From an uncultured virus (IMG/VR IMGVR_UViG_3300030202_002298) (Duplodnaviria > Heunggongvirae > Uroviricota > Caudoviricetes): a stretch of 64,000 nucleotides of DNA. Made by a program: the position numbers and the translations under genes. How positions within the stretch are numbered: the first letter of the stretch is position 1; each line of letters opens with the position of its first letter. Positions 4,615 through 63,603 of the stretch are shown here, piece by piece. Below the pieces are notes generated by a model. That model ran no database searches and had not been told where the DNA came from. It saw only the letters and a list, made by a program, of their open reading frames with translations. The DNA lies in IMG/VR virus record IMGVR_UViG_3300030202_002298, positions 1-64,000 of that record, one strand, 5' to 3'.

Positions 4615-6435
4615 TTATTGTTTCGAGCCTTGTCCTAATGGGAGCTTTTGCCCTGCCTGTCCTTCTATGGCTTTTCTTAACGTGCTAAGTTGAATACCTA
4701 TATCGTCATACTGTTTAAATAACTGAGGTATCTCAGATTGGTCTGCCTGTAATTGATCTGCACTTTTTCTAATTGTCTTAAGTAACCCTACATCTGAAGG
4801 AGTGCCAATTGGTGCGCCTATGGGACTTGATCCCGTCATAAATTCAGATATAGATATTCCGTCTTCACTTCTAGACCCTCCTCTATTCATCAATTCCCTC
4901 CCTGTATCTTGTTGTTTTTGTTCTAAAAATCTTATTGCCTGATTTACTCTGCCTTGAGGAGAATTATCACCTAACCCTAAGACATTCCCTAATCCTTCTC
5001 TTGCAAATCTACCCATCAAGTTTGCTTCACCTAATACTTTATTTGCTATTTGAAGAGCTGATTCCCCTCCTTGTGGAGCTGTCATTAACTTACCTGAAGC
5101 CCCTTCCACTTTTACATCAGAAGGAAGTGGTGCAGTTGCTCTAGGTGTAGGAGATGGTGTTACAGATGTTTGATCGACACCTAATGCTGCTGGCCTTTGC
5201 CCCGGAAGAGATGGGCGTTTTGGTGTTGGTGTTGATGTTGGTGAAGTTTGACTTGGTAATGGAGTATTATTAATCTGCTCCATGTCAGACAATGCATCTA
5301 TAGCTAAAAGTGACTGCCATCCTTCGGGCAATCCAGCTTTCATAGCTTTGTTCTCTTTAATTAATTCAGGGAGTATTCTAGTGAAAGCGTCTCTAGCATT
5401 TCCAAAGTCTTTAATCTTTGCCTCTTCCCTAAGAAAGTTCAGTGCCTCTTGTTTTTCTGCTCCGGTAGCACCTCTTAATTTTCCTGTTTTATCAGGCACT
5501 TGAAAATCAAAAGCCTTACCCTCAAGCATTGCTCTAGCTTCTATTTTCGCTTGCCCATACATTGAGATTAGCTCAAGTCCTTCTTGAGTAGTTATATTAC
5601 TAACACCTTCTGGAGTGTTGTGATCTCCGAGTCGATAGATGTACGCATCTGGATTCAGAAGAAATGTTTTTTGTTTCTCCTCTGTATCAAGTATCTTTTT
5701 AAATTCTGGTTTATTTTTTAATATAGAATAAGCAGCACCATGACTAATCTTTGCTGATTTATTTCCAGCGGATATTGAAGAGATGGCAGGTGTTAGGAAT
5801 TTATTCACCATCTTCAGGATCTGGGCATCATTTCTTTTTATTTGATCTTGTACCTTTTTGTATCTTGGATTATTACGAATTACATTACTTGCGTCTCTAG
5901 TTTTAATAACATTAAGAAGTGGTTCTATCTTTGCCTTTATCGCTAAGGCTTTATTGGGAGTTAGACTCTGTAACTCTTCCGGTGACATTGCTTTTATTCT
6001 AGATAACTCTGCGGCATCAGCTTCATTCAGACCTTTTAGATCCAGCTTGTCTATATTACCTAACGCTTTTTCTGTTACAAAGAACTGTGTAGCTGGAAGG
6101 TTAGCTTTAAAGTTTCCTAGCTCTGCGTTTAATTCAAATATGTTTTTGTTTTTAAATGGAATTCCATATTGTGCAGCTTCTCTTTTAGCGTTAAATAAAT
6201 TCGTGTAGTCAGTAAGTTTAGTCTCTAGATCGAAACGTAATGAATTCGCTTTTTCCAATGCCCTTGTGCTTCGAGACTCTGCACGTTGTTCTGCCCTAAT
6301 AGCTTCAGCTTCATTAAGTTGTCGGGTTCTTAAATTCTCTTCTCTATCTAGTCTTCGTTTGCGTAGGTCATCATCATGGTCATCGCCCATAGTGCCTAGC
6401 CCCATCATAATACTGTACGGATCGTTAGTAGCCAT
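4615..6435 (-). CDS. Putative internal virion (ejection) protein
   Basis: 606-aa helical/coiled-coil ORF between the tail genes and the giant virion protein; assigned by position. Confidence 0.55.
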   Translation of the reverse strand: MATNDPYSIMMGLGTMGDDHDDDLRKRRLDREENLRTRQLNEAEAIRAEQRAESRSTRALEKANSLRFDLETKLTDYTNLFNAKREAAQYGIPFKNKNIFELNAELGNFKANLPATQFFVTEKALGNIDKLDLKGLNEADAAELSRIKAMSPEELQSLTPNKALAIKAKIEPLLNVIKTRDASNVIRNNPRYKKVQDQIKRNDAQILKMVNKFLTPAISSISAGNKSAKISHGAAYSILKNKPEFKKILDTEEKQKTFLLNPDAYIYRLGDHNTPEGVSNITTQEGLELISMYGQAKIEARAMLEGKAFDFQVPDKTGKLRGATGAEKQEALNFLREEAKIKDFGNARDAFTRILPELIKENKAMKAGLPEGWQSLLAIDALSDMEQINNTPLPSQTSPTSTPTPKRPSLPGQRPAALGVDQTSVTPSPTPRATAPLPSDVKVEGASGKLMTAPQGGESALQIANKVLGEANLMGRFAREGLGNVLGLGDNSPQGRVNQAIRFLEQKQQDTGRELMNRGGSRSEDGISISEFMTGSSPIGAPIGTPSDVGLLKTIRKSADQLQADQSEIPQLFKQYDDIGIQLSTLRKAIEGQAGQKLPLGQGSKQ

Positions 6436-23524: not shown

Positions 23525-24182
23525 CTTTAACTTCTACTTTTGTGGCATCTGTTTGCACGATGATATTATTCATTGGCGAAAATCCAGGCTTACTGGAAGA
23601 CTTCCCGCCCTTCTCATCTTGCTTGGCTTTTATCTGTGCGTCAATGAGTGCCCCTTTTAAAATGTCCCTATTGATTTCATTACGATACTTGACCGTATTA
23701 AACAGGGCTTCATATAAGGTTCGCTCTCTCTCCTCTTCTTGACCCGCAGTTATTTCCTCTTTGATCTCCCCCATGAGAACACCCAACTGTGTGAAGTCTT
23801 TGAGTATTCCTCCCGCTGTGATTTGCCGCATGGCCTGAAGATGTGTACTGCTAAAAGCGGCTGCTGCTATAGCCTCCTCCCTTGCTTTGCCTACAATACC
23901 TACTGCCTCCAGACCATGCGTTAACGCCCGTTCCTCTTCCTTTAATTTCTCGGTGAACTTAAGAGAAGGGTCAGGTCTGTGAACTACCTCTTGTTTAGTC
24001 GGGGGTTCAACAGGGTCTTTGCTCCACCTTGCGTTAAATTCTTCATCATTATATATCAGCTTATAGATATTACCCTTTGGCATATCCAGTAATAGAGCTG
24101 CTTTACTTACATCACCATCAGCTTCTTCCAATGCTAGGTGAATAGCCTTTCGCTCCCCTTTACTGTACTGATTCTTTCTCAA
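23499..24182 (-). CDS. Putative terminase small subunit with N-terminal Fis-type HTH
   Basis: ALEEADGDVSKAALLLDMPKGNIYKLI; overlaps the terL start. Confidence 0.55.
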   Translation of the reverse strand: MRKNQYSKGERKAIHLALEEADGDVSKAALLLDMPKGNIYKLIYNDEEFNARWSKDPVEPPTKQEVVHRPDPSLKFTEKLKEEERALTHGLEAVGIVGKAREEAIAAAAFSSTHLQAMRQITAGGILKDFTQLGVLMGEIKEEITAGQEEERERTLYEALFNTVKYRNEINRDILKGALIDAQIKAKQDEKGGKSSSKPGFSPMNNIIVQTDATKVEVKDANKGTTK

Positions 24183-25009
24183 GTAATATAATGCTTAACA
24201 GTAGTAGAGGATTTAGAGTGAGCCAGATCTTTAGCTATTGTTTCTATATCCTCTCCTGATTTCTTACGCTGACTAGCATGAGTAACCCTAAAGCAATGGA
24301 ATGTTTTATCCTCAATACCAAACCTAATCAGCATTCTTTTAAACGTCTGTTGAAACCATGTCCTACGTCCCGCTCCACCATCATCTGGCAGTAAGTATTT
24401 CTTTCTTTCTTCTGGGAATAAATATGAATCATCCTCTTGTGGCAGACTACCTATTGTCTTACGCAATCTAGCACTCATCTTTAAAGCAACCTTCTTATCC
24501 TTCTTGTCTGTCCACACCTCAACATGAGTTGGGCTAAAGCAATCCCATTCAAGCTGAACGATGTCACCTAAGCGTAACCCTGTCTCGACAGCTATAATTA
24601 CAGCAGATCTCCAGAACCCCTCAGTGTTTGCAATGATATACTTAACCTCAGCAGGTGTGAATGCTTCCTTCTTCTGTGCTTGTCTCTTCTTATGTGGAAC
24701 CTTCCTGATGTTAACCTTTACCAGTGAGGCAGGATTGCCAACCATCCACCCCTTAGCTACACAGTAATTAAAGAATGTCCTCAACGCTGACAGCTTATAC
24801 CTACGAGTAGAAACAGCAGTAATCTTCTTACCGTTATTGATATAATCATTGACGATAAACTCATCTATTTTTTCGGTATGCGTATCTAATAGCTCCTTGT
24901 CCTCCAAGAAGTGAGCGACCTCTCTCCAAGTGTTTTCGGCAGTCTTGTTGGATTTACCTATTGCCTCCATCCACTCCATCATTTTATTCAATGCTTCATT
25001 TGCTTTCAT
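24179..25009 (-). CDS. Tyrosine recombinase (XerC/D-sized, no arm-binding domain)
   Basis: TGLRLGD, HCFR and LAHSKSSTTVKHY catalytic motifs; N-terminal SAM-like domain. Confidence 0.9.
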   Translation of the reverse strand: MKANEALNKMMEWMEAIGKSNKTAENTWREVAHFLEDKELLDTHTEKIDEFIVNDYINNGKKITAVSTRRYKLSALRTFFNYCVAKGWMVGNPASLVKVNIRKVPHKKRQAQKKEAFTPAEVKYIIANTEGFWRSAVIIAVETGLRLGDIVQLEWDCFSPTHVEVWTDKKDKKVALKMSARLRKTIGSLPQEDDSYLFPEERKKYLLPDDGGAGRRTWFQQTFKRMLIRFGIEDKTFHCFRVTHASQRKKSGEDIETIAKDLAHSKSSTTVKHYIT

Positions 25010-32522: not shown

Positions 32523-34535
32523 TTAATTTACCTTTGTTGCTATCTTTCTTAGGAAGGATGTCATCACTCCGATAGATGAAGTAATACCTCCAAGTACAAC
32601 ATTGTTACCTTCGCCATACATCTTCGCTCCTTCCTCCTTTGTGTATGCGTTTGCTATACCTATGCCATACACATCTATCTTGTAGATTGAACGACAGAAG
32701 CTAGTGGTATCAGCAACATGATTTATAGCAGCGTCACCACTGTAATGATGGGCGTGAGGCTCACCATCACTTATAACAAACACGATTCGGTTATCATAAT
32801 ATGGGTAGTCATTCATTAATTTCTTACTAACTTCCTCGATTGCATACCCGTCATAGTTAGCACCCCTATCTCTTATAGCTGGGATACGAACAGTGTCATC
32901 TCTTTGCTGGCTTAGGTACTCATGTATAACTACGCAGCATTCGTTCTTCGTTTTCTTTTTAGAAGGGACAGACTTGATTAGTTTTTCACCATGATTGTTT
33001 TCCCAATCAGCATAGTGTGTGTATATATCAAGACTAATACCTTTAATCTGCTTGAGTGCTTCAGACATAATCACACACACCTTATTAGCTGAGTCCATGC
33101 GAGTGACAGGAGCTTTGTAAGTACTACCCCCAGACTTGTCATAGTTTCCCATCGACCCTGACCTATCAACTAACAGTGCTACCGCAATCTTCTTACCCGA
33201 TATGACTTGCTGCTTCTCAAAGACAGATGGGTTGTCCGTATTGAATGATAACTTATACAAGGACGCAGGATCTAAGTGTCCACTCTTCTGACCGCGAACA
33301 TAACTGCGAGGATCATTGTTAAGGAAGTCTAAGCTATTAACTATTGCCTTGATTGAATCCTTATTATCACTGACCACTTGCTTGTACTTGTTAGACAACT
33401 TAGTAGCTGCTGCTTTCTTTGCAGGTGTAGACAAATCAAACTCATCTTCAACCACCCACTCAACACAAGACGGTGGCTCACCAGCATCAGGTATAGTAGG
33501 AAGCACCAGCTCAGACACATTAGTTGGAGTATCATCCTCACCTGACTTCATCTCATCTCCAAACAAGTGAGCATCAGCCTGACTAGGTAACGGATCACCC
33601 TCACCTTTGTCTTCACTGTTCTCACCTTCGCCTTCGCCCTCATCACTTCCACCTTCAGTCTCACACTCACCTTCCTCTTCTGGTACAGGATTGATAGGAG
33701 TATGTGCATCACCCTCTTCCTCCTCTTCCTCTACCTCGAACAGATCGTTGATGGTTTTCTCTAACAACTGTGCATCTTCAAACCTTTCCCTTGGTTTACC
33801 TGACAGCATGATCTCAGCCGCTTCATTCATTATCTGTTTCATCCTGCCATCATCCATGAATCTGGCATCTATAGGATTAAGTAGATTGTATGCTGTTGTT
33901 ATCGTTGCTGACCTTGCATCTAGCTCAGTTAAGTTGTCCATGTACTCATCATTGACCGTAGTTGAATAGTCACGGTGAGCATCGAAGAAACCTGTGAAGC
34001 CAGACCAGTTATCCAGTACATCCTTACGAGCTACTGCTTGCTCCATAGCTTCCCAGATATACTTAGCTTTACTACGCTCCCTGTTGAATGGCTTCGCCTG
34101 TTTAGCTGCCCTAGGATGAACTGTTCTCTTCATGGTTGAGGCTATCATTGCTAACCCCGACATGATGTCAGTTGCTTCACCAGTTGATTCAGTGTTAGTG
34201 AATATATCTGCTGGCATATATACGGTATCTGACTCGACATCATTAACCGCACCGACTGTTGCAAACCCCAGCTTCAGTGACCTCTCGCCACTAACACTGT
34301 TGTCCAGTACGTTAAGGTTCTTGGCTACAGTTCTCTTGAGCCTATCCTTTTCTACTGTTGATTCATCTGCCTTAGCTACAGATGTCCAACCTCCATACCC
34401 ACCACCATAAGAACCACGCGAGCTACCCCAGTTATCTAGGTAATCAGAAAGGCTAGTGCCATCCCTTCTACTCTCGTATCTACGTTCTTCTGCTGCTGCT
34501 TCATCTACTCTTATTTCCCACAATGGTTTACTCAT
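32523..34535 (-). CDS. CobT-like VWA-domain protein
   Basis: MIDAS motif LVDRSGSM, ISDGEP, acidic linker, GHLDPASLYK; likely start ATG 34535 with SD AGGAG. Confidence 0.85.
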   Translation of the reverse strand: MSKPLWEIRVDEAAAEERRYESRRDGTSLSDYLDNWGSSRGSYGGGYGGWTSVAKADESTVEKDRLKRTVAKNLNVLDNSVSGERSLKLGFATVGAVNDVESDTVYMPADIFTNTESTGEATDIMSGLAMIASTMKRTVHPRAAKQAKPFNRERSKAKYIWEAMEQAVARKDVLDNWSGFTGFFDAHRDYSTTVNDEYMDNLTELDARSATITTAYNLLNPIDARFMDDGRMKQIMNEAAEIMLSGKPRERFEDAQLLEKTINDLFEVEEEEEEGDAHTPINPVPEEEGECETEGGSDEGEGEGENSEDKGEGDPLPSQADAHLFGDEMKSGEDDTPTNVSELVLPTIPDAGEPPSCVEWVVEDEFDLSTPAKKAAATKLSNKYKQVVSDNKDSIKAIVNSLDFLNNDPRSYVRGQKSGHLDPASLYKLSFNTDNPSVFEKQQVISGKKIAVALLVDRSGSMGNYDKSGGSTYKAPVTRMDSANKVCVIMSEALKQIKGISLDIYTHYADWENNHGEKLIKSVPSKKKTKNECCVVIHEYLSQQRDDTVRIPAIRDRGANYDGYAIEEVSKKLMNDYPYYDNRIVFVISDGEPHAHHYSGDAAINHVADTTSFCRSIYKIDVYGIGIANAYTKEEGAKMYGEGNNVVLGGITSSIGVMTSFLRKIATKVN

Positions 34536-34663
34536 AAATATACTCCTATTAAATACCCTGCAATCAGGGCGATCAGGCAAAGGAATCCTGTTTCCATTAC
34601 CCAGAATTGTCTCTGAGCTTTCTGCCAGTCGGCTATGAACTTTTCTGATTCTTTAAATGTCAT
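34532..34663 (-). CDS. 43-aa protein with C-terminal transmembrane helix (not in ORF track)
   Basis: MTFKESEKFIADWQKAQRQFWVMETGFLCLIALIAGYLIGVYL; its stop overlaps the VWA start (ATGA). Confidence 0.6.
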   Translation of the reverse strand: MTFKESEKFIADWQKAQRQFWVMETGFLCLIALIAGYLIGVYL

Positions 34664-34671
34664 GGTATTAA

Positions 34672-36057
34672 TTACATTAAACTTACACCTGCAAATAATG
34701 TCAGTGCCTTACTCCTATCTGACTCAGGGCCATCAGCATCGAAGTGATTAAGAATGGTATGCTCGATTGCATCCTTGCCTAACTCGGGCCATAGGAAGCA
34801 ACACTCTTCAGCCTGTCTGTATGTGATCGGCTTGTCATACGAACCAGTACCAACTACGCCACACTTGGATTGCACCTGCTTGACCACCCTAGATAAGTTC
34901 TTAGCGAAGTCTTGATCCACTCCTGTCCTACTCACTAATACCTTAGTCATGTTCGCCTCAGTCAATGGCTGGAAGATTGCTCGTATCTTGAATCGAGATA
35001 GCAATGACTCACACATTCTGAATGTACCTTGGTATTGTGTACCGATGTTAGCTGTCGCAATGAACACAGTGTCTATGCCTATGCGTACCTCACCTAGTTG
35101 ATCAATGTGTGTCCGTCTGTCTTGCAACAGTTCAAGCAATGGATTCTGAATGGAGGGATCAAGACGGTTCAACTCCTCTAACCGTACAACTACACCACCC
35201 ATACTGATAGCCTTCACGAATGCACTATGCTCAAAGAATGTCTTACCATCCCTAGCTTGCATGGTACCGAACCATTGCTGTGCCTCTCGTACAGTTGAAC
35301 AGTTGATCGAGAAGAACTTGCGATTGGTTGCCGCTGCGAATTGCTCTGCTGCCTTGGACTTACCCGATGACGGATCACCTTGAGCTAACACACACGACAT
35401 CCCCCTAATGCTTGCTGCATTGTTAACAGCCTTCCATAACTTCTTATGTTCCTTGCTTACAATGAAGTCACGGTCAACCTCTGGTACTGGTGGACTAAAC
35501 TCACCCATCTCAACAGTCGATGCGGTACTCACTGCTGATTCTAATGTCTTAACACGGGCATTAAGATTGTTCACATGATTCTCCATGTCATCGTATTGCT
35601 GCTTCGCTGCCTCGATACGGAAGTCATTGACCACCTCATGTGGGGCAGACATAAACCGCATAGGATCTGTAAGTACCTGCTCTTTGGTTAATAAAGGAGG
35701 AGGCACAAACACACCGTTACTTTTCATACGATTAGCAGGTGCTACCTCTGCCTCTTCCTCTTCTTGAGGTTCATCTTCGTATGGAGTGAGGTCACTAGTA
35801 GTGATGAAGGTTGCCAGCTTATTGGCTTGCTCTGATATCTCTTTAGACATGGAGACGGAAATGTCAGCGTCGATTGATTTATCTATAGCCCACTCAACCC
35901 AACCGCTGATCGTCTTGAATGTACTTGTCGTGTTATGGTTTATAGACTTCAAGATACATTGCTCTGCCATCTTGTTTATCTTTGCATCACCACTCGTAAT
36001 ACAAACTAACACTGTCTTTAACATACTGCTTACGTCTTGCTTTGTTTCTGTACTCAT
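34672..36057 (-). CDS. MoxR/CobS-like AAA+ ATPase
   Basis: Walker A GDPSSGKS, Walker B VRLEELNR, ATAN sensor, SLLSRF arginine finger. Confidence 0.88.
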   Translation of the reverse strand: MSTETKQDVSSMLKTVLVCITSGDAKINKMAEQCILKSINHNTTSTFKTISGWVEWAIDKSIDADISVSMSKEISEQANKLATFITTSDLTPYEDEPQEEEEAEVAPANRMKSNGVFVPPPLLTKEQVLTDPMRFMSAPHEVVNDFRIEAAKQQYDDMENHVNNLNARVKTLESAVSTASTVEMGEFSPPVPEVDRDFIVSKEHKKLWKAVNNAASIRGMSCVLAQGDPSSGKSKAAEQFAAATNRKFFSINCSTVREAQQWFGTMQARDGKTFFEHSAFVKAISMGGVVVRLEELNRLDPSIQNPLLELLQDRRTHIDQLGEVRIGIDTVFIATANIGTQYQGTFRMCESLLSRFKIRAIFQPLTEANMTKVLVSRTGVDQDFAKNLSRVVKQVQSKCGVVGTGSYDKPITYRQAEECCFLWPELGKDAIEHTILNHFDADGPESDRSKALTLFAGVSLM

Positions 36058-49460: not shown

Positions 49461-49637
49461 TTATCCTGTGTATTTGCGTATATGATCTGGCCTAAACCGT
49501 AGAGTAGATCCAATTTTGTAGCCTTTAAGATTTCCTTTATCCAAATGCCTATATAAAGCGGATTGTGATATATTAAGAAATTTACAGACTTGCTTTGCTG
49601 TCATCATAGGCTCTGGTTCTGTACTGAAAGTGGTCAT
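49461..49637 (-). CDS. xis: Excisionase-type HTH_17 protein, 58 aa (not in ORF track)
   Basis: MTTFSTEPEPMMTAKQVCKFLNISQSALYRHLDKGNLKGYKIGSTLRFRPDHIRKYTG. Confidence 0.75.
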   Translation of the reverse strand: MTTFSTEPEPMMTAKQVCKFLNISQSALYRHLDKGNLKGYKIGSTLRFRPDHIRKYTG

Positions 49638-49799
49638 TCTTCAAAATACTTTCTTACNNNNNNNNNNAGCCCTGATAAATTCTGATTTCTTTCCATTAAA
49701 CAGCCTAGATCCAGCCGTAATTAGCTGGTCTGTATGTGGGTCAACAGCGAATCCCCTAATCCGATCTTTTAAAATTTTCTCTTTCTTTGTTTGCTGCAC
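49634..49799 (-). CDS. Small RHH-like regulator (Cro-equivalent), interrupted by an N gap at 49658-49667
   Basis: GTG start; IRGFAVDPHTDQLI...KKSEFIR[gap]VRKYFEE. Confidence 0.5.
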
Positions 49800-51436: not shown

Positions 51437-52825
51437 ATGGCTCAACCGTGGATTAAATGGGTGCGAGGTTCTAAACAAGAAAACTTGATCGCAGAACTAC
51501 TTGGTATCAAATATAAAAAAGAAGGCGGCAAATATAAGGTTCGTTATTGGACAAGTACGATTCACAGAAATGCGTTTCGTAAAGACAATGCCAGAAAACA
51601 CCTTCCAGTATTAGACAAGTTCATTAGAGACAGAATTAAAGAGTATGAAGATCATCAACCTGTTGAGCCAAAAGTAGCCAAACAATATGAATCCGATGAG
51701 CTTCTAACTGCTAAACAAATACTCAAGGATTGGAAGATAACAACTCCCCTATTAACATTTGTTAAACAGCAAGCAGAACAAGAGTTTAACACGAACGGAA
51801 AAACACAAGACATCTCACCTAAAGAGGCGTACAAACAATACCGTGTATCGAAACCTCTGGCACACAACTCAATTCCCGCTGCTCAAAAAATATTCAAGGA
51901 TGTGTTCAGTCCATTTTTCGACATGGAAATGCGGAGAATTAATTTTACTGATATAGATAAACAGTTGATTGCTCTCTGGAAATCTAATGACTGGTCTGTC
52001 GATACATTTAATAAACGAGTCACGGGTACATCAGGTTTTCTAAAATGGTGTCAGTCTTCAAAAAGGCGATACATTAGCATGAGTTGGCCTGTTAGCTCAT
52101 TGGAACGTATGCCAGAGGAAGAATATGAAACATTAGCTGGCGGCATAACCAAATATTTCACACCTGACCAAACCAATGATTTACTACATTCTGCAACAGG
52201 TCGAGATACAGACAAATATCAATTCGATTATATGCCGAATCTCGCAACCCAATTTTTTGCAGGGCCGCGACCTTTCGAGACATACCGTCTACCGTTGGAA
52301 AATTTCAATATGGAGGATAACACGGTTAAACTGGTTAAATCAAAACTAGGAGACAACAAACATCGTTTAGTTAAATTAAAACCTAACCTAAAAGCCATAA
52401 TTCTCCCCTACTGGGAAGCTCAAGGAGGAAGAGGTTTAATGTTACCGCCAGAATTAAGGGTAAAACTAGAACCATTGTTCTATGGGCTGAATGCTGAACT
52501 TGCAAAAACAGGTAAAATTAGAAACAAAAAAGCGAAGAGGGAATATGACGAATGCCTAGCTTCTATCGGTGGTACGTTTAGTCAGGCATTTAAGCGAATG
52601 GCCGAGCGGCTCAAATTAGATTGGATTCGTGACGGATCTAGGCACAGCTATGGCTCCTATAGGTACAATCAGTTATTCCATCAAGATAACTCCGATAATT
52701 TTATATCAACAAAAAACACTCTCAAAGAAGAGATGGGTACAAATGTTGAGAACCTGGAAAAACATTATGTTGGTAGCGGTATTAAACTAGCTGAGGTTAA
52801 CCAATATTTTTCTGTGGGATTGTGA
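51437..52825 (+). CDS. int: Tyrosine integrase
   Basis: FAGPRPFE, DGSRHSYGSY, EMGT...LEKHY; 462 aa; adjacent to the tRNA and attP. Confidence 0.88.
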   Translation: MAQPWIKWVRGSKQENLIAELLGIKYKKEGGKYKVRYWTSTIHRNAFRKDNARKHLPVLDKFIRDRIKEYEDHQPVEPKVAKQYESDELLTAKQILKDWKITTPLLTFVKQQAEQEFNTNGKTQDISPKEAYKQYRVSKPLAHNSIPAAQKIFKDVFSPFFDMEMRRINFTDIDKQLIALWKSNDWSVDTFNKRVTGTSGFLKWCQSSKRRYISMSWPVSSLERMPEEEYETLAGGITKYFTPDQTNDLLHSATGRDTDKYQFDYMPNLATQFFAGPRPFETYRLPLENFNMEDNTVKLVKSKLGDNKHRLVKLKPNLKAIILPYWEAQGGRGLMLPPELRVKLEPLFYGLNAELAKTGKIRNKKAKREYDECLASIGGTFSQAFKRMAERLKLDWIRDGSRHSYGSYRYNQLFHQDNSDNFISTKNTLKEEMGTNVENLEKHYVGSGIKLAEVNQYFSVGL

Positions 52826-52902
52826 TGGTAGCTGCGAGTGGAATTGAACCACTGACCTGAAGCTTATGAGTCTTCCGCTCTAACCAACTGAGCTACGCAG
52901 CC
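52826..52902 (-). tRNA. tRNA-Met(CAT), elongator-like, CCA encoded
   Basis: GGCTGCGTAGCTCAGTTGGTTAGAGCGGAAGACTCATAAGCTTCAGGTCAGTGGTTCAATTCCACTCGCAGCTACCA; the acceptor stem resembles elongator Met more than Ile2 or fMet. Confidence 0.93.
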
Positions 52903-52964
52903 ATCGAAGAAGGGCAATTTAAACACACTTGTCAATCGTTCTCAATCCTCCCAAATTCCAGATC

Positions 52965-53186
52965 TAGGGGGGATGAAAGGGGGATTTCTAAAAACTGGTC
53001 AAAATTGCCCCACCTTAAACTACTGCCTATAAGATAGTTAGATGCCTTTAGACTTCTGGCCTCATAATCCAAAATTCTTGTAACTATAAACCACTGATAA
53101 TCAGCAACATAACCCTCTCTGTTTTTTTTGTGATTATGTCATTTACTCCCATTTACTCCCATCCATAGGGGGGATTTAGGGGGGAT
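52965..53186. other. attP site
   Basis: Arm-type repeat pairs (consensus TAGGGGGGAT, 11-bp period) at 52965/52976 and 53166/53177; core AGACTTCTGGC-CTCATAA-TCCAAAATTCT at 53050-53078; CATTTACTCC tandem at 53140-53159; IHF-like TAAACCACTGATA at ~53087-53099. Confidence 0.75.
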
Positions 53187-53187
53187 T

Positions 53188-53436
53188 TTAAGGCAGGGTT
53201 GGATGACACTCCCAGCACCTATCTAAGATAGTATCTCTTTTGACTAGGAAGTCTGCTCCCCTCTCCTCTTCGTACCCTACATAATGAACAATGAGCTGCT
53301 GCTTGTAGACCTTGCACACTGCCTCATGAGCCTGATCTTTTGCTCTACTAAAACTGGATGCCGTTAATGCCGCCAAGATCCCGATAATGGCGATAGCTAT
53401 GAGTAGCTCCATTATGGTCATTCCAGCAAATCCCAT
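53188..53436 (-). CDS. Type IV pilin-like mini-protein with C-terminal CxxCH
   Basis: G|MTIMELLIAIAIIGILAA with Glu at +5; SRAKDQA...C...QQL; CWECH near the C-terminus; alternative start at 53421. Confidence 0.8.
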   Translation of the reverse strand: MGFAGMTIMELLIAIAIIGILAALTASSFSRAKDQAHEAVCKVYKQQLIVHYVGYEEERGADFLVKRDTILDRCWECHPTLP

Positions 53437-53810
53437 GACCCTTCAAATTTGTAGAATCTATTACCTGTGCCATTATAGATTTTCGCTGTTAAACCTCTAA
53501 CCTCATCAAACGGAATAATCCAGAATTTCAATACGTCGATTGCACAGCATATAAAATAATCAACATCACCTGGATCGTAACGCTTTTTAGCGGAGAGTCC
53601 GTGAGCTAATTGAAACTGATAATGCGGCCTGTTGTCTTTGTATTTGTGTTGCTGAAGGGTTGCCTTAACTTGGATACGAAGGAACCTTTGCCGTTTGACC
53701 ACTAATAGATCAAAACGGGCGGTGTCTGAAAGGGGGTGTGCTACGCTCCAACCGTGTTCTATCAATTTCTCCGCTACCAGCAGTTCCCCCCGCTGGCCAG
53801 TGGAACGCAC
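53418..53810 (-). CDS. PD-(D/E)XK endonuclease (PDDEXK_5-like)
   Basis: GQRGELLV...FDLLV...RIQVK...VDYF. Confidence 0.8.
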   Translation of the reverse strand: MRSTGQRGELLVAEKLIEHGWSVAHPLSDTARFDLLVVKRQRFLRIQVKATLQQHKYKDNRPHYQFQLAHGLSAKKRYDPGDVDYFICCAIDVLKFWIIPFDEVRGLTAKIYNGTGNRFYKFEGSWDLLE

Positions 53811-56319: not shown

Positions 56320-59300
56320 TTATATCTGTCCTTCATACTCAACTTCGTATCTATCAATATCTGCTCGCTCTCCGTAAATTGTGTAGTAGCAATCAATAGC
56401 GTTACCATCTGCCTCGCCTATTTTTATCTCTATATTACTAGCAGAAATTACAAACAGTTTTTGGTATGAACCTTTAGGGGTTAGCTGAACTGTAACTGTT
56501 CCATCTCTAACCAACCCTGCCCAATAATCTGGTAGATCAATAGTGTCACCTTGAACTTCACCACGTTGGTAAACCCCAATCTCTGGCCCTTCCAATGAGG
56601 AGTGGCGAAGATTCATTCCTTCTTTTGTAGGGTGAGGTATTTTAAATGATTTACTGTACCCGCCTATGTCACCGTTAGAATAAATATTGCCACTAAAGAA
56701 AGCCGTGTAAGAACTATTCGGGCTGGTTCCAACGCCTAGTCTTGTAGTTATCTGAGCATCTCCAACAACGTGTAGGTTCTCATTACCAGGAGATGTCTTG
56801 TTAACAGTTAGTGAATGATCAGAGCCATTGTAAAATAAACGTGGAGCTTGTTTAACTGTAGTGCTGTCTGTGTAAACCGCTATGTTTCCATTGGTTGTGC
56901 TGCTAGTAACTGAGCTTGATGAAACTGTTCCACTACCACTGCCTCCTCCGCTTTGGTCTGCCCATTCTAATGTGGTTCCACTACTAGGTGCTGTAAGAAC
57001 TTGCCCCGCACTGCTAGGTGCTGACGTTGGAAATGTGTATGCATCATGGAACCTAATTCCAGAGTTAGATACGGACATACGACTATTACCCCCAGAGGTA
57101 AATTCCATTGTGTCGTTTGCGCTTCTAAAAATACCTGTGTTTAAATCATTTATAAATGTGATACCGGGATTACCAGCACTACCATCTCCTGAACGGAAGA
57201 ATGCTGAAAAAGTATTTAACCATCTGAGATTATATGCACCCGAATCTCTCACTGCATCAGCGTAAGGGCCGATGTTTCGCTCAAAGTAAGTTTGTTTATT
57301 GAAATAAAACGATGGCCGATCCGTCATAAAGTGACAGAAAGAACTATTTTGTGGCCCTGTTTGTAACCAGCCATGATCAGTGACTGTTATTAAAGAAGTG
57401 TTAGTGGAATTATGTTGATATGTGTCCGCACCGAAATATAACTTATCAGATATTACAACATTACCTCCAGAGTCTACACGGAATTTTTGTGATCCGTTTT
57501 CATCAATGTAGAGCAAAGGATAACCCGCAGAAGTTCCAGACGAGTTGACGCTAATTCGCACACCATACGGAGTTGTGCTGCTTGTTTGGAAATGCCCAGC
57601 ATAGGTTGTTCCACTTGTGACTGCATGAATTTTTGAGTCAGGGGCGTTAGTCGCTATACCTAATCCTGTGTTATTTACAAATGCCCTTGCAGTGCCTCCC
57701 GTTACAAACCCAATACTATCCGCAGAATTTTCGTATATATATGTGTTAGAACCTCCGTCTAGGTAAAACGCTTCAGAAGCACCCACAAAGACTTCACCAT
57801 TAGCTTTAACACCAAATTTATAAGTCCCATTAACATTAACACCGAGAGCCATTCCAGAACTCCCCGGCTCATCCATTCGCACTAGCAACCCACCTGAGTT
57901 TCCACTAGTTGCAGTGTTGTAAATTTTTGAAACCCAGTTGCCTGTTAATGATTTCTGAACGTGAAACGGGTACGATGGAAAAGCTCCTATGCCTAAAGCG
58001 TTTTGGATTTTTATGTTCCCATCATTGTAGATCATAAAATCCGCAGTCCCACTTAAATCAGGATCAGTGGTAGCACTTGAACTTCTGATAATTGCAAACT
58101 TGTTTGTACCGTATGCATTAGTTACCAAGAACCTTCTAGCACTAGATGTGTGTCCTGTGTTTGCGTGAAATAATAAACCTCCGTAGGAACCGTAGTTGCT
58201 TGTTGTTGAGTAACCCGCTAGTCGCAATGCGTTGTTATCTGGATCTCCATTAACTTCACCTATTGTTAAACCTCGCCCCGAAATGTGCTTTATGTACGAA
58301 TCACCACCACTATTTTCAAGTTGCAACGCTCCCGCATTTGTTATGGTTAATCGGTTAGTATTATTTGTTGCAAAATTGATAGCACCATTTTCGTAGTTAT
58401 GTATTCCAGCGTTAAGGCCAGATAAATAAAATTCAAGTCCGTCACTAGCTCCCGTGCCACTACTGTTGTTTTGCAGTGCCATTTTTACGGGAGTGGTGTC
58501 GTAAATTGTTAGTTTTTTAGTCGCAGCAGAAAGGCCGATTCCTAAACGACCTCGGTTAGAAACAAACACACCAGTTCCAGTTGGGGTATAACAAGCTAAA
58601 TTTGGTACGTCATTGACGATGTTGTTTGCTGTATCAATTGACAAACCATAAGCACCTCCGTTGTTTTCAAATCTGCCAGTCCAGTTAACAGTAGTCTGTT
58701 GTACGTCCAGTAAATATCCTGTTTTTCCAATGATGCTTACCTTGCCGTTAAATGTAGCAGTGTCACCTATTCTACTGTGTTGTTCATGGCAAGATATGTT
58801 GTCTATGTTAAAATTACCTCCAGCAGTGTTAGCCCAGAATCCTAAAGTTGTGTCTGTTGGAACAATTTCTATAGTGTGCGTTCCATTACCGTAACTAACA
58901 TATCCATTTGAACTAGTGTAAGCACTTCCACTTCCAAGTTTATTACCAATCCAAATATTTGCTAGACCGCCACTTCCAACTTGAATTGTAAATGAGAGTT
59001 TAAATGTTTTGCCAGAATCGTTAGCAACAAAAACACTGTCTTGAGCTAAAGTTCCGTTACTAGAATCGTCAAATGATGCAACTCCATTGAGAATCTTCCA
59101 CGGAGCAGAACTTGTGGTGATTGCAACATTGCCTCCATTATACATTGTCCATGAACTGGTACTCGCCATAGCACCATTGGATATTTTGTCAGTAGTGCTG
59201 TGAGTTTTAATTTCACCTGAGACATCTAATTTAGAATTTGGTAAAGTATCTGCTATCCCCAAATTCCCATTTCTCAGTGTCATTGTGTTTACCCCTCCAT

Positions 59301-62300
59301 TAGCTGATCTGCAATAGAGAGTGTCGGTGTCAAAATAAATATCCGAAGTTCCGCTATAACCGAATCTGTAGGAACTGCCGTTAGCATTAGCAATCTGAAT
59401 TTTAGAGTCAGGAGCAGTTACCCCTCCAATGCCGCAATTTCCATTTGTATCAATTACAAAACGAGGGCTACTGTCTAGGTTGCCAGCATTGTTTTCGCTG
59501 ATAAAAAACCCAGCACCATTTTGGCCAATAGATGTTGAACCTCCTGACCCTTTAAATATCAGAGGGACTTCACCTTTGCTTGCATCGCCAATCGTTATCC
59601 CTTGTTCACTTGCGGCTGGAGTTACTTGGAGAGTTCCTGTGATTGTGCCGCCAGATGAGTTTAGTATTAGTTTCTGACTGTTCTGAACTCTGAACTCTAA
59701 GTTGCCGCCGATACTGTCAACAATGCCTGAAGTGTTCCCGTTGGAGTATGTTAGCTTAATTCCATACGTTGAACTTTGTGTGAAGTTTGCTGCACCGTTT
59801 GAATCTATCTCAAATTTCTTACTTCCGCCGCCAAAACTACTGCCTGTCCAAAATTCTATTCCTCCTTGACCGTGAAGTTTTAATCCTGCTGTAGAATATT
59901 TTAGTGCTAATCCTCCACGGTTCCCCCCGCTGTCAGCTAATATCAAGTAAGGTTGCCATGTATTTGCTGTTTGTGAAACATTTCTAACGTAAACAGTACC
60001 AGTGCTATCTGAAGAATTTCTAAAACACGCATGACCAGCACCCGCCGAATAAAGACCTAAAAGCTCATTGCTTGAAGATATGGTAGCTGCGGTTCCTATG
60101 CCTAAAAAAGAACCACTCAGCGTCATTTGCTGAGAGTTGTTGGTGAAAAACTTTAACGTGGAATTTGTAGCTTCAATTCGCTCATGTGAGTCAGCCCATT
60201 GCAGTGAGTATCCGTGGTCTAAGTTTAAATGACTGTTATCAATTATTAAATCGCCACTTAAATTAGTATTACCTCCTGATGAAACAGAAAAATAATGTGA
60301 TCCGTTTTGCTCAACTTTAAGTAAAGGATAACCTGAAGAAGTTCCTGACGAGGAAGCGTTAATCCTCACACCATACGGAGTTGTGCTACTTGTTTGGAAA
60401 TGTGCAGAATAAGTTGAACCACTGCTAATTGTATGAATCCTAGAGTCGGGTAAAGTTGTGTTTATACCAACATCTCCATTTTTTACGATCAGTCCGGTGT
60501 GAGTGGTAGCCCCATTAGAATCTACCGTTGTAAGCTGTGCATAACGGTCAGACGAAGCGTTGTTACCTTTAAGAAGTAAAGCACCTCCGTAACTTCCACT
60601 CCACATTGGGAGGTTGTTTCCGATCTGTATTTTTCCATCACCCCGCACAAGCATTAGGCTAGTGCCGTTACTGTATGTTGTATTGTTTGTTCTAACGTGG
60701 AGTACCTCTACATCTGAACCATCGTTAACCGTTGAAATTACAGTCCCATCATACTCTGAGGTGTTGCCCGAATTATGAAGCCATGCAACAGGAGTGTTAG
60801 CTGCACCTGAACTACCAGAGACAGTTAAAGGGCCACCAATTGTTGTTGTATTCCCACTTGTCCCGCACAAAGCAACGCCTCCAGCCCGTTTAACAACCAA
60901 GTCCATGTTGTTGACGTTTGGTTGATATACATACCAATCACCGTTGCTAGTCCCATATGCAGGGGTTGTATTATAAGCCATGCCCATCCGTGCGGAATTA
61001 GCATAAGTGGAGTTGGTAAAAAATATTTCACACCATTGGCTGCTCTTTACCTCAATGCCGCATCTGGCAGAGGTGTTACCGAATTGAGCCATTTGTTGGC
61101 CTGATCCAGTTGCGGTTATGTTACCACTAAATATAGCGTTCCCGTTATACAACGTCAGAACATTGTTGCCTCCCGGTTGGCCACTCGTTTCACCTATTTT
61201 AAATGCTCCTGAATCAGTCCTATCAATACCTACACACCAGTTAGTTGTGTTGTCACCGAAGGAAATGTATGGGTCGTTATTCCCTGAAAATAACCTAAGT
61301 TTTGTTGCTCCCGAAGATTTGGAAACTGTTAAGTCACCACTAGGTATTTCTACATCACCAGCATTAAGTAACTTCAGTACTGTTTTTGGAGAACCAGTGT
61401 TATCGGTGATGAAATGAAAATCTCCTACATTTGTAGCGGTTTTATATTGATATGCAATTCGTCCATCAGCATTTCTCGCTCGGAAATCTAGATTAGCATA
61501 AACATTGTCAGCCTCTGTTGTGTTGTAAATTAAAAACCCCTGCCCAGCACCTCCACCACTTAACCCATCTTCTGTTACATTTGTGCCTGAACGTGCAAAA
61601 ACTACAGAAAGAGTTTTATTCGGTGTTGTGCTACCTATGCCTACCGAATCACTACCGATAGTCATCACCGCACTATTGTTGTCCCAGATTTGCGTTTTTA
61701 AATTACTAGCATCAGCAACAATGCGTCCGACTATAGTATGATCTAGTCTCCTCCAGATTAACGCTGACGATGTTCCTGTGTTTGTTGGTACATCAATGTA
61801 GGTTGTGTTATTAACCTCTAGTTGACCTGATAAAACGCCATTGTTGTCCTCGGTTAATTCAAACGCTGTATTGCTGTCTGTGGTGTTTCTAAATTTTAGT
61901 CCAGTGCCAGCGACATAAACCTTCCAATCATCTGTACCACTCTCCGCTGAAACTAATGAGAGTGCGGGGTCGCTTGATGTAGAAATTAAAAGATCGCTGC
62001 CAATAGTCCCACCATTGAACGAACTACTTGTCTGAATTACGTTACCACTAGAATCAACTGCTAGATATTTGGCTACCGTTCCTGTTAAACCACTGCCACC
62101 GTATTTGTTTAATTTAAGCTGCCCCGTTTCCCCGCTTACCTCTAACAACCAGTCAGTAATCGCCCCAGATTGCCCATGCCTACCTATACTGAAGTCTGCT
62201 CCTGAAGTGTTATTATTATTACTGTCTAGATTTACAAACAGTCCTCCGAAAGTATTAATTCGTAAGTCATCCGCAGCATTACCTGAACTGTTACGACTAC

Positions 62301-63603
62301 CAATAGCGTGTTCCGTGTGACCCCCGCCATAAAATGTTATATAAGGAGCCTGAGATGCGAAGTCTATATTTTGAGCAAAAGTCACCTTGCCGTTGCTGGC
62401 TATAGTTACCCTCTCCGTAGCGTCAGTATAAAACTTTAGATAATCTCCGCCATTGCTCCCGACTATCTTTGCTTTGGTTCCACCCCACCTAATGCTTTGC
62501 CCGTCATCAAGAAATGAATCACCATTGTTTATTCTAACATCGCCATTGACTTGAAGTCTGTAGCTAGGTGTGCAAGCGATCCCTACCTTGCCATTATCAG
62601 CAACAGTGAATCTTGTAGTGCCAGCGGTTTGCACATAAAAATAATCATTGCTGACAAACATACCAGTATTCGCGTCTGTATCGCCAATATTGTAACCATC
62701 TGAGACTGCTATACGGCCGTTGTGAACATGAAGCTTTTGGCTTGGCTCAATTCCTAAACCCAGCGATCCATTCTGCATGAAATACCACTTGCGAGTACCG
62801 TTAATGCCGATAAACAAATCGGATGAACCCATCTCTAAGTCGGCATAGGTTCCATTCTTGTTTATTCTAAGTGTCGGGTTGTGAGAAGCAGTATAAATTT
62901 CTAGGTCTTTAGCTGGGGCTGAACTGCCTATGCCAACGCCCGTTGATTTTACAACAAGGTGATTCTCGTTGAACGTAGCACTAGCATTAAATTTTAAAGC
63001 AGTTGATGAATGATCCCATCCGATTTTTGCATTAGCTGATGTATCAGAAAAAAGTATGTAGTTGTCATGCGAAGTGCCGCCTTTAACCTCAATGCCAGTA
63101 TGACTAGACGTTTCAACTGTCAGGTTGCCCGTAAGTGTGCCGCCAGTTGCGGTTATTGCTCCACTAAATGTAGCGTTACCGTTTTCTGACCCGTCCAAAG
63201 TCAAAGCAGTTTTTACAGTGCCACCATCCTTGATCTTAAAAAGAATATCTTTGTCATCAATAGGGTTTTGAATAACAAAGTTGTTTGAAGAGTTTTGTAA
63301 AATCCCAAATCTAACTCCATCATCTTTAAGGCTAATAGTATCGCCACCAGCGTCTAAAACAATTCCATCAGCGGAGTCTATTATAAAGTCGCTAGTTGAC
63401 GCGATTGTTCCACCGATAGTTAAAGTGCCACTAAGTGTGCCGCCAGCTAGGGGGAGATGATTGTTTAACTGTAGAACACCATTGGCAGCGGCATTGCCGA
63501 CATAGAGTTTACTGTCATGTAGATTAACTGCTAACTCGCCAGCCGCTAAACCGCTAGGTACGCCAGCAGTTGCCTTGCGCTTAATCTGAAGTGTATTAGC
63601 CAT
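56320..63603 (-). CDS. Giant (2427 aa) tail fibre / receptor-binding protein
   Basis: N-terminal LQIKR...LAAGELAVN...KLYVG; many G[NK]VGIG repeats; C-terminal KSFKIPHP...LRHSSLEGPE...LPDYW domain. Confidence 0.85.
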   Translation of the reverse strand: MANTLQIKRKATAGVPSGLAAGELAVNLHDSKLYVGNAAANGVLQLNNHLPLAGGTLSGTLTIGGTIASTSDFIIDSADGIVLDAGGDTISLKDDGVRFGILQNSSNNFVIQNPIDDKDILFKIKDGGTVKTALTLDGSENGNATFSGAITATGGTLTGNLTVETSSHTGIEVKGGTSHDNYILFSDTSANAKIGWDHSSTALKFNASATFNENHLVVKSTGVGIGSSAPAKDLEIYTASHNPTLRINKNGTYADLEMGSSDLFIGINGTRKWYFMQNGSLGLGIEPSQKLHVHNGRIAVSDGYNIGDTDANTGMFVSNDYFYVQTAGTTRFTVADNGKVGIACTPSYRLQVNGDVRINNGDSFLDDGQSIRWGGTKAKIVGSNGGDYLKFYTDATERVTIASNGKVTFAQNIDFASQAPYITFYGGGHTEHAIGSRNSSGNAADDLRINTFGGLFVNLDSNNNNTSGADFSIGRHGQSGAITDWLLEVSGETGQLKLNKYGGSGLTGTVAKYLAVDSSGNVIQTSSSFNGGTIGSDLLISTSSDPALSLVSAESGTDDWKVYVAGTGLKFRNTTDSNTAFELTEDNNGVLSGQLEVNNTTYIDVPTNTGTSSALIWRRLDHTIVGRIVADASNLKTQIWDNNSAVMTIGSDSVGIGSTTPNKTLSVVFARSGTNVTEDGLSGGGAGQGFLIYNTTEADNVYANLDFRARNADGRIAYQYKTATNVGDFHFITDNTGSPKTVLKLLNAGDVEIPSGDLTVSKSSGATKLRLFSGNNDPYISFGDNTTNWCVGIDRTDSGAFKIGETSGQPGGNNVLTLYNGNAIFSGNITATGSGQQMAQFGNTSARCGIEVKSSQWCEIFFTNSTYANSARMGMAYNTTPAYGTSNGDWYVYQPNVNNMDLVVKRAGGVALCGTSGNTTTIGGPLTVSGSSGAANTPVAWLHNSGNTSEYDGTVISTVNDGSDVEVLHVRTNNTTYSNGTSLMLVRGDGKIQIGNNLPMWSGSYGGALLLKGNNASSDRYAQLTTVDSNGATTHTGLIVKNGDVGINTTLPDSRIHTISSGSTYSAHFQTSSTTPYGVRINASSSGTSSGYPLLKVEQNGSHYFSVSSGGNTNLSGDLIIDNSHLNLDHGYSLQWADSHERIEATNSTLKFFTNNSQQMTLSGSFLGIGTAATISSSNELLGLYSAGAGHACFRNSSDSTGTVYVRNVSQTANTWQPYLILADSGGNRGGLALKYSTAGLKLHGQGGIEFWTGSSFGGGSKKFEIDSNGAANFTQSSTYGIKLTYSNGNTSGIVDSIGGNLEFRVQNSQKLILNSSGGTITGTLQVTPAASEQGITIGDASKGEVPLIFKGSGGSTSIGQNGAGFFISENNAGNLDSSPRFVIDTNGNCGIGGVTAPDSKIQIANANGSSYRFGYSGTSDIYFDTDTLYCRSANGGVNTMTLRNGNLGIADTLPNSKLDVSGEIKTHSTTDKISNGAMASTSSWTMYNGGNVAITTSSAPWKILNGVASFDDSSNGTLAQDSVFVANDSGKTFKLSFTIQVGSGGLANIWIGNKLGSGSAYTSSNGYVSYGNGTHTIEIVPTDTTLGFWANTAGGNFNIDNISCHEQHSRIGDTATFNGKVSIIGKTGYLLDVQQTTVNWTGRFENNGGAYGLSIDTANNIVNDVPNLACYTPTGTGVFVSNRGRLGIGLSAATKKLTIYDTTPVKMALQNNSSGTGASDGLEFYLSGLNAGIHNYENGAINFATNNTNRLTITNAGALQLENSGGDSYIKHISGRGLTIGEVNGDPDNNALRLAGYSTTSNYGSYGGLLFHANTGHTSSARRFLVTNAYGTNKFAIIRSSSATTDPDLSGTADFMIYNDGNIKIQNALGIGAFPSYPFHVQKSLTGNWVSKIYNTATSGNSGGLLVRMDEPGSSGMALGVNVNGTYKFGVKANGEVFVGASEAFYLDGGSNTYIYENSADSIGFVTGGTARAFVNNTGLGIATNAPDSKIHAVTSGTTYAGHFQTSSTTPYGVRISVNSSGTSAGYPLLYIDENGSQKFRVDSGGNVVISDKLYFGADTYQHNSTNTSLITVTDHGWLQTGPQNSSFCHFMTDRPSFYFNKQTYFERNIGPYADAVRDSGAYNLRWLNTFSAFFRSGDGSAGNPGITFINDLNTGIFRSANDTMEFTSGGNSRMSVSNSGIRFHDAYTFPTSAPSSAGQVLTAPSSGTTLEWADQSGGGSGSGTVSSSSVTSSTTNGNIAVYTDSTTVKQAPRLFYNGSDHSLTVNKTSPGNENLHVVGDAQITTRLGVGTSPNSSYTAFFSGNIYSNGDIGGYSKSFKIPHPTKEGMNLRHSSLEGPEIGVYQRGEVQGDTIDLPDYWAGLVRDGTVTVQLTPKGSYQKLFVISASNIEIKIGEADGNAIDCYYTIYGERADIDRYEVEYEGQI

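Follow-up and report, generated by a model that had tools for sequence, protein, structure and literature searches.

A putative attachment site around a CAT anticodon loop, and a complete phage tRNA beside it, suggest tRNA-dependent lysogeny in a marine phage

A complete tRNA gene with the anticodon CAT adjoins the integrase gene of an uncultured marine phage, and a proposed attachment site close by holds the anticodon loop of such tRNAs without any half of a tRNA gene. This raises the question of where the phage integrates and what it keeps the tRNA for. The original prediction was break-and-replace integration, in which a host CAT tRNA gene is destroyed and the phage copy complements it. We examined the locus in a stretch of 64,000 nt (the window), bases 1–64000 of a source record of 70,722 nt that is rated complete and is present in marine metagenomes from 11 studies. 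The features that bear on the question are the following.

49461–49637, minus strand: candidate excisionase or recombination directionality factor, a 58-aa helix-turn-helix protein (PHROG matches)

51437–52825, plus strand: divergent tyrosine integrase, 462 aa (remote homology, fold search and conserved columns)

52826–52902, minus strand: complete tRNA, anticodon CAT (Met or Ile2), CCA end encoded (ARAGORN and Rfam)

52916–52945, minus strand: promoter-like site, TTGAGA, 18 nt, TAAATT (consensus match only, 9/12)

52965–52987, plus strand: putative arm-type repeat pair 1, TAGGGGGGATGAAAGGGGGATTT, two GGGGGAT copies with an 11-nt period (repeat scan)

53050–53078, plus strand: proposed attP core, CTCATAA (53061–53067) within an 8/11 inverted repeat, no tRNA half

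53140–53159, plus strand: tandem of two CATTTACTCC copies, at 53140 and 53150

53166–53188, plus strand: putative arm-type repeat pair 2, two GGGGGGAT copies with an 11-nt period, an 87% copy of pair 1

The 462-aa protein had no match in Pfam, PHROG or PDB sequence searches, and an index of 5.8 billion proteins returned its own cluster, one relative of 46% identity and nothing else. An exhaustive HMMER search with the protein found 29 relatives, 20 of which entered a family scan that left out nine of 61–227 aa, apparently fragments. PF00589 was detected at E≤0.001 in 16 of the 20 (14 above the Pfam curated cut-off), and the four relatives without it include the two closest full-length ones. 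The AF2 model of the integrase was moderate (pLDDT 62.6, 7-row alignment, poor C-terminus). When it was compared using Foldseek, all six matches at E≤0.001 were tyrosine recombinases (XerA, IntI), as were the next seven ranks (including Tn1549 Int, XerH and Brujita Int), and Lambda Int stood at rank 15, all with low TM-scores. The conserved columns of alignment A1 include RP.E, K.K.G, RHS.G and (H/N)Y, and residues 25–71 are modelled as three strands and a helix, probably an N-terminal arm-binding domain. The family and fold matches bear out the original reading of this gene as a tyrosine recombinase, and we conclude that 51437–52825 is a very divergent tyrosine integrase, one that no family library names.

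Two further genes belong to the recombination inventory of the window. The 58-aa protein matched PHROG 66 and PHROG 2907 (excisionase) with E values of 6e-7 to 9e-7; a run of 10 N at 49657–49666 lies between the excisionase-like gene and an Arc-like repressor gene. A second, conventional tyrosine recombinase of 276 aa is encoded at 24179–25009 on the minus strand, two ORFs from the large terminase gene. It carries PF00589 (63 bits), matches PHROG 1 ‘integrase’ with an E value of 2e-36 and is without an arm-binding extension. This protein could act in dimer resolution, in a plasmid-like prophage state or in a second integration system.

The tRNA gene scored 66.5 bits with the Rfam tRNA model at 52826–52902, ARAGORN agreed on the anticodon CAT, and ARAGORN detected no second tRNA anywhere in the 64-kb window. 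The fold is a standard cloverleaf in which two pairs, G1-U72 and A31-G39, are non-Watson–Crick. Its last base touches the TGA stop codon (52823–52825) of the integrase ORF, confirming that a complete tRNA on the opposite strand abuts the int stop. The tRNA had been called tRNA-Met(CAT); its completeness and its anticodon hold, and the Met label, for which the anticodon is the sole ground, is no more likely than Ile2(CAT). Among annotated phage tRNAs, the closest are of the tRNA-Ile type and carry TAT or GAT anticodons (86–87%); in E. coli, elongator tRNA-Met matches best over the full length (77–78%). The promoter-like site ends 13 nt upstream of the tRNA, and its match is not significant, with three sites found in the region against 1.9 expected from shuffles.

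When the window was compared with L002, a related contig, the tRNA was identical at all 77 positions, and int differed by 7.4% and the intergenic DNA by 5.2%. The probability of finding no change in the tRNA, given the divergence of the flanks, was 0.003–0.016. Such identity amid flanks diverged by 5–7% indicates that the tRNA is under selection, and we propose that it is a replacement copy for a host tRNA.

We next consider the repeats beyond the tRNA. Counting both strands, the entire 70.7-kb record contains five copies of GGGGGAT, and four of these fall within this 220-nt region (at 52968, 52979, 53169 and 53180), all on one strand and arranged as two pairs of 11-nt period that flank the core, as had been claimed. 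This distribution supports the view that the repeats behave as arm-type sites. Pair 2 appears to mark the outer edge of attP, the similarity to L002 and L004 ending directly after it. Judging from its position, the CATTTACTCC tandem may be a further arm site or a site for an excision factor.

Between the two pairs, AGACTTCTGGC (53050–53060) and TCCAAAATTCT (53068–53078) can pair at 8 of their 11 positions, and the sequence between them is exactly CTCATAA, in agreement with the original description. CTCATAA is the 7-nt anticodon loop of CAT tRNAs, and the phage tRNA(CAT) has the same loop. The core thus holds the loop 7-mer with a 3-bp stem-like TGG/CCA, and its positions 53050–53074 are identical in L002 (25/25). 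A flanking inverted repeat of at least 8/11 was found at 61 of 63,971 window positions and in 0.15% of local-composition draws. Counted together with its complement, the 7-mer has 14 copies in the record, and on either strand and anywhere in the 152-nt inter-repeat stretch it was recovered in 3.6% of shuffles. CTCATAA by itself is therefore weak evidence and takes its value from its setting.

ARAGORN and a permissive Rfam search (E up to 5, 52700–53600) detected the complete tRNA and no partial tRNA near the core, so that neither flank of the core continues as tRNA sequence. Between 52988 and 53165 there is no tRNA fragment, and thus the site lacks the feature of a classical tRNA-restoring attP. 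The 5′ end of the complete tRNA is 158 nt from the core 7-mer, and the bases flanking the two loops differ (GAAGA/GCTTC in the tRNA versus CTGGC/TCCAA in the core); both points had been noted in the original prediction, the first as about 150 bp.

To place this anatomy we turned to relatives. In L002 (92% protein identity) the tRNA, arms and core are all as in the window; L004 is of the L002 type, and the DNA of L003 is 99.6% identical to that of the window. Three distant loci are organized differently. The integrases of L006 and L007 are 29% and 36% identical to that of the window, and L011 was found through its att fragment. Each of the three has two arm pairs of its own with an 11-nt period (ATTCCCACA or ATACCATAC), 243–254 nt apart, and the interval between the pairs contains, on the other strand from int, a 3′ portion of tRNA-Lys(TTT) that begins 2–4 bases before the anticodon loop and runs to CCA. 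A complete tRNA was found at none of the three loci, and the L006 record (63.5 kb, 89% complete) contained no tRNA at E≤0.01; weak tRNA matches in the L007 and L011 records are probably the att fragments, to judge from where they lie. It follows that this integrase lineage puts an anticodon loop between its arm pairs, and the tRNA-Lys fragments suggest that L006, L007 and L011 restore their target gene classically. Sublocation classes of tRNA integration were reportedly described by Williams in 2002. L007 also has a 10-nt exact repeat, CGGCTTAAAA, at 5670–5679 and 5839–5848, in the int stop region and the attP core, which is probably due to chance.

The positions of the loops were then compared. 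In the relatives the loop is 72–73 nt from the nearer arm pair and 144–154 nt from the farther one, the longer side containing the 38 nt of tRNA. In the window, the gap between CTCATAA and pair 1 is 73–75 nt and that to the CATTTACTCC pair 72 nt, and pair 2 is 100 nt away. A 7-mer at a gap of 72–75 nt arose in 0.15% of shuffles of the 152-nt stretch, but the true significance is weaker than this value because the match was noticed post hoc and could have been made with either of two repeat types on either of two sides. The agreement in spacing with the relatives is still suggestive. Measured from start to start, the arm pairs are 201 nt apart in the window versus 243–254 nt in the relatives, a shortening of about the length of one tRNA 3′ half. 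The arm-to-core spacers of the window and the relatives showed no similarity in either orientation (z −1.4 to 1.1), and therefore the positional argument is purely one of geometry, drawn from two lineages, one of each type. The idea that the window attP could be shown to be inverted relative to int was dropped, as the spacers could not be aligned in either orientation.

Collectively, these data lead us to favour, with moderate confidence, the explanation that the phage attP breaks a host CAT tRNA gene and that the phage’s own tRNA(CAT) replaces its function, which amounts to tRNA-dependent lysogeny. The mechanism itself was published in 2024 for other phages. According to this explanation, 52965–53188 would be the attP of a temperate marine phage, and its heterobivalent tyrosine integrase would bind the GGGGGAT arm pairs. 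Strand exchange would take place in or beside CTCATAA, within an imperfect inverted repeat that may mimic an anticodon arm, and a host gene for a CAT tRNA would be the predicted target, entered at its anticodon loop. With no more than the loop and a few bases around it in attP, neither junction would rebuild the tRNA. The conserved tRNA(CAT) beside int, with a promoter-like site of its own, would then replace the lost function. The identity of attB, the break in the host tRNA and the complementation are read from the anatomy of the locus, and we infer them from it. The integrase fold and family, the repeats, the core anatomy, the intact and conserved tRNA and the contrast with the relatives were observed directly.

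The break-and-replace claim is accordingly upheld in part: loop placement in the lineage, a core 7-mer without a tRNA half and a conserved tRNA speak for it, and no junction, attB or host was found. The further claim that the host could come to depend on the prophage calls for a qualification. Since attB would be restored by precise excision, lethality should be confined to cells that lose the phage tRNA and keep the prophage integrated.

The host and integrated copies were sought in several ways. Terminase and helicase had only distant matches among isolates (<35% identity), in phages of unrelated hosts; the terminase had no close cultured phage relative, its best match being 29% identical, and the integrase had zero matches among phage isolates. 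Across the genome, metagenome and viral contig collections searched, no integrated copy, attL/attR, attB or host was found. Searching viral contigs with the integrase gave one close and two distant loci, every one in the attP form, and the genome collection contained no prophage copy. Two matches to the integrase in Prochlorococcus single-cell genomes were rejected as spurious frame artefacts. The match covered 46 residues of an alternative reading frame; the opposite strand encodes a 372-aa ORF across it, which by eye we take to be tgt. The L006 integrase as query retrieved L006 alone, the right attP arm as junction probe retrieved the L002 contig alone, and a 28-nt stretch from 53196 had no match in viral contigs. 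The tRNA-Lys half of the relatives was present in none of 151 cyanobacterial genomes when up to three mismatches were allowed.

That the host site lies elsewhere is possible, if somewhat unlikely. Under this alternative attP would be as proposed and the target another short sequence, CTCATAA would be a coincidence or a relic, and tRNA(CAT) would be a phage tRNA like many others, retained to aid translation or to escape host defences directed at tRNAs. The empty search for attB fits this view, as do the 14 copies of the 7-mer in the record, its recovery in 3.6% of shuffles of the stretch and the result from four metagenomes, in which no abundant host segment matched the inter-arm stretch (flat depth, bin 52976–53136). 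CAT tRNAs are among the commonest phage tRNAs, and if that holds, the matching anticodon is less telling for it. Other roles of phage tRNAs are proposed in the discussion of PMC10865867. A coincidental 7-mer would nevertheless have to sit at the loop position of the relatives, at the 0.15% level in shuffles, and within the 8/11 inverted repeat; and the single tRNA of the window has the anticodon CAT, adjoins int and is fully conserved amid diverging flanks.

A classical arrangement, in which the complete tRNA beside int is the crossover site, its 3′ part restores the host gene and CTCATAA is idle, appears quite unlikely. An int gene converging on the 3′ end of a tRNA is a frequent layout in tRNA-targeting phages, and int does so here. 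Furthermore, the pairs G1-U72 and A31-G39 each join a base of the 5′ half to one of the 3′ half, as in a hybrid of two tRNAs. However, the int side of the tRNA is free of arm repeats: 51437–52825 contains no GGGGGAT, and the nearest match to the 11-nt arm with two mismatches is at 52399. The tRNA’s own loop is 95–97 nt from pair 1, not 72–73 nt, and in all three relatives a tRNA fragment is found between the arm pairs. The T-arm/acceptor 29-mer of the tRNA, when searched by exact matching, which a host tRNA with one base changed would escape, had no match in 185,579 species genomes; it was found in two contigs of the JGI metagenomes, both free phage, and in one contig of the viral contig collection, that of L002. 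Its absence outside phage is slight evidence against a long core of the classical kind within the tRNA gene.

We regard it as very unlikely that Int inverts the segment between core and tRNA as a switch, or that the module is a decayed, non-integrating relic. The plus strand reads CTCATAA at 53061 and the complement of this 7-mer at 52864, two copies in inverted orientation 190 nt apart, and an inversion would join the tRNA 3′ half to the left arm of the core, giving a classical-looking half site. Against this, the loop flanks of tRNA and core differ, and no joints, no integrated form and no inverted form were seen in the contigs of four marine runs, an absence of limited weight since contigs lose rare variants. 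A decayed relic is at odds with the intact int and the conserved attP in L002. Least probable of all is a reversible flip by Int between the core and an attB-like tRNA that would split the phage tRNA and couple its supply to the integration state.

A pilin-like gene of 82 aa (53188–53436, minus strand) with an N-terminal methylation motif adjoins the outer arm pair on its outer side. It was found in the window, in L003 and in the distant L011 (about 2170–2400), and was absent at the same junction in L002, L004, L006 and L007. In four metagenomes, contigs with up to ~13 times the phage depth matched 53187–53261 only. The gene looks like a mobile moron cassette beside attP, and a protein atlas placed the pilin-like protein in viral clusters only, with no host lead. 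Among the loose contig ends listed from the four runs, clusters fell on the tRNA 5′ half and on 53187–53261. The continuations at the tRNA 5′ half look like T-arms of other tRNA genes, and the related pilin-like gene in L011 may explain the ends at 53187–53261. Loose ends from two of the runs hint at marine CAT tRNAs that read TCCAT or TCCTT past the loop, which is no more than a lead. Elsewhere in the window, at 32523–36057 on the minus strand, a CobT-like gene (685 aa) adjoins a gene for a CobS/porphyrin-type AAA ATPase (461 aa), and the two resemble auxiliary metabolic genes of other phages. Very large ORFs lie at 56320–63603 of the window (minus strand, 2427 aa) and at 65668–70650 of the record (minus strand, 1660 aa); repeated Gly/Ser/Thr/Asn stretches in the first suggest a tail-fibre or adhesin protein.

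If the favoured explanation, breakage of a host CAT tRNA gene and its replacement by the phage tRNA, is confirmed, tRNA-dependent lysogeny would reach an uncultured marine lineage with a very divergent integrase, beyond the cultured phages of Actinobacteria. The lineage would also offer a natural pair for studying how the switch evolved, with a tRNA-Lys half and no tRNA on one side and a CAT loop and a whole tRNA on the other. For the prediction of attB and host, a search for long attP/attB identity fails with such phages, and a lone phage tRNA beside int can point to the target.

Experimental proof of tRNA-dependent lysogeny was given for mycobacteriophages by Guerrero-Bustamante and Hatfull (mBio 2024, PMC10865867). 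That paper describes as cases Fionnbharth (K4), Cluster L, Cain (K6), OneUp, Mollymur and Gaia, with common cores of 8–17 bp flanked by arm-type pairs and with phage tRNAs of the same isotype needed for viable integrants. CAT (Ile2) and TTT (Lys) tRNAs are among the targets, and in Gaia the tRNA lies downstream of int. The authors also report that close integrase relatives of the tRNA-dependent phages carry a 43–52 bp tRNA 3′ half without a phage tRNA; in the pairs Cain/Ximenita and Gaia/Omega, a long core without a phage tRNA stands against a short core with the cognate tRNA. Boilgate, Ximenita and Omega integrate classically at the anticodon loop, with restoration (PMC10865867). The authors expect the strategy beyond Actinobacteria and leave its frequency there open (PMC10865867, section 11). 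In a full-text literature search for tRNA-dependent lysogeny, none of the 15 titles listed, of 23 papers found, named a temperate marine phage.

The tRNA-dependent actinobacteriophages and the window share a tyrosine integrase, arm pairs flanking the attP core and what in the window appears to be a core cut down to about the anticodon loop, from which the tRNA would not be rebuilt. Unlike them, the window belongs to an uncultured marine phage known from sequence alone, its integrase is outside the family libraries, and its tRNA abuts the int stop, 158 nt from the core and inverted to it. With the classical L006, L007 and L011 the window has in common the integrase lineage, the layout of arms and core and the loop spacing, 72–73 nt in the relatives; it differs from them in lacking the 38-nt tRNA 3′ part, in its arm spacing (201 versus 243–254 nt) and in carrying a whole tRNA outside the arms. 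Outside Actinobacteria, Lj965 of Lactobacillus johnsonii (PMC10865867, section 11; PMC12429752) and Sinorhizobium prophages resembling Mesorhizobium phage vB_MloP_Lo5R7ANS (PMC10865867; PMC12429752) are named as possible cases, and PMC12429752 states that a Sinorhizobium group described the mechanism for some prophages. By these descriptions, Lj965 and the Sinorhizobium prophages resemble what we propose here, in that the prophage fails to rebuild the tRNA and encodes a cognate one. The lineage of the window, like the tRNA-dependent actinobacteriophages, also has integrase relatives that keep a tRNA 3′ half without a phage tRNA.
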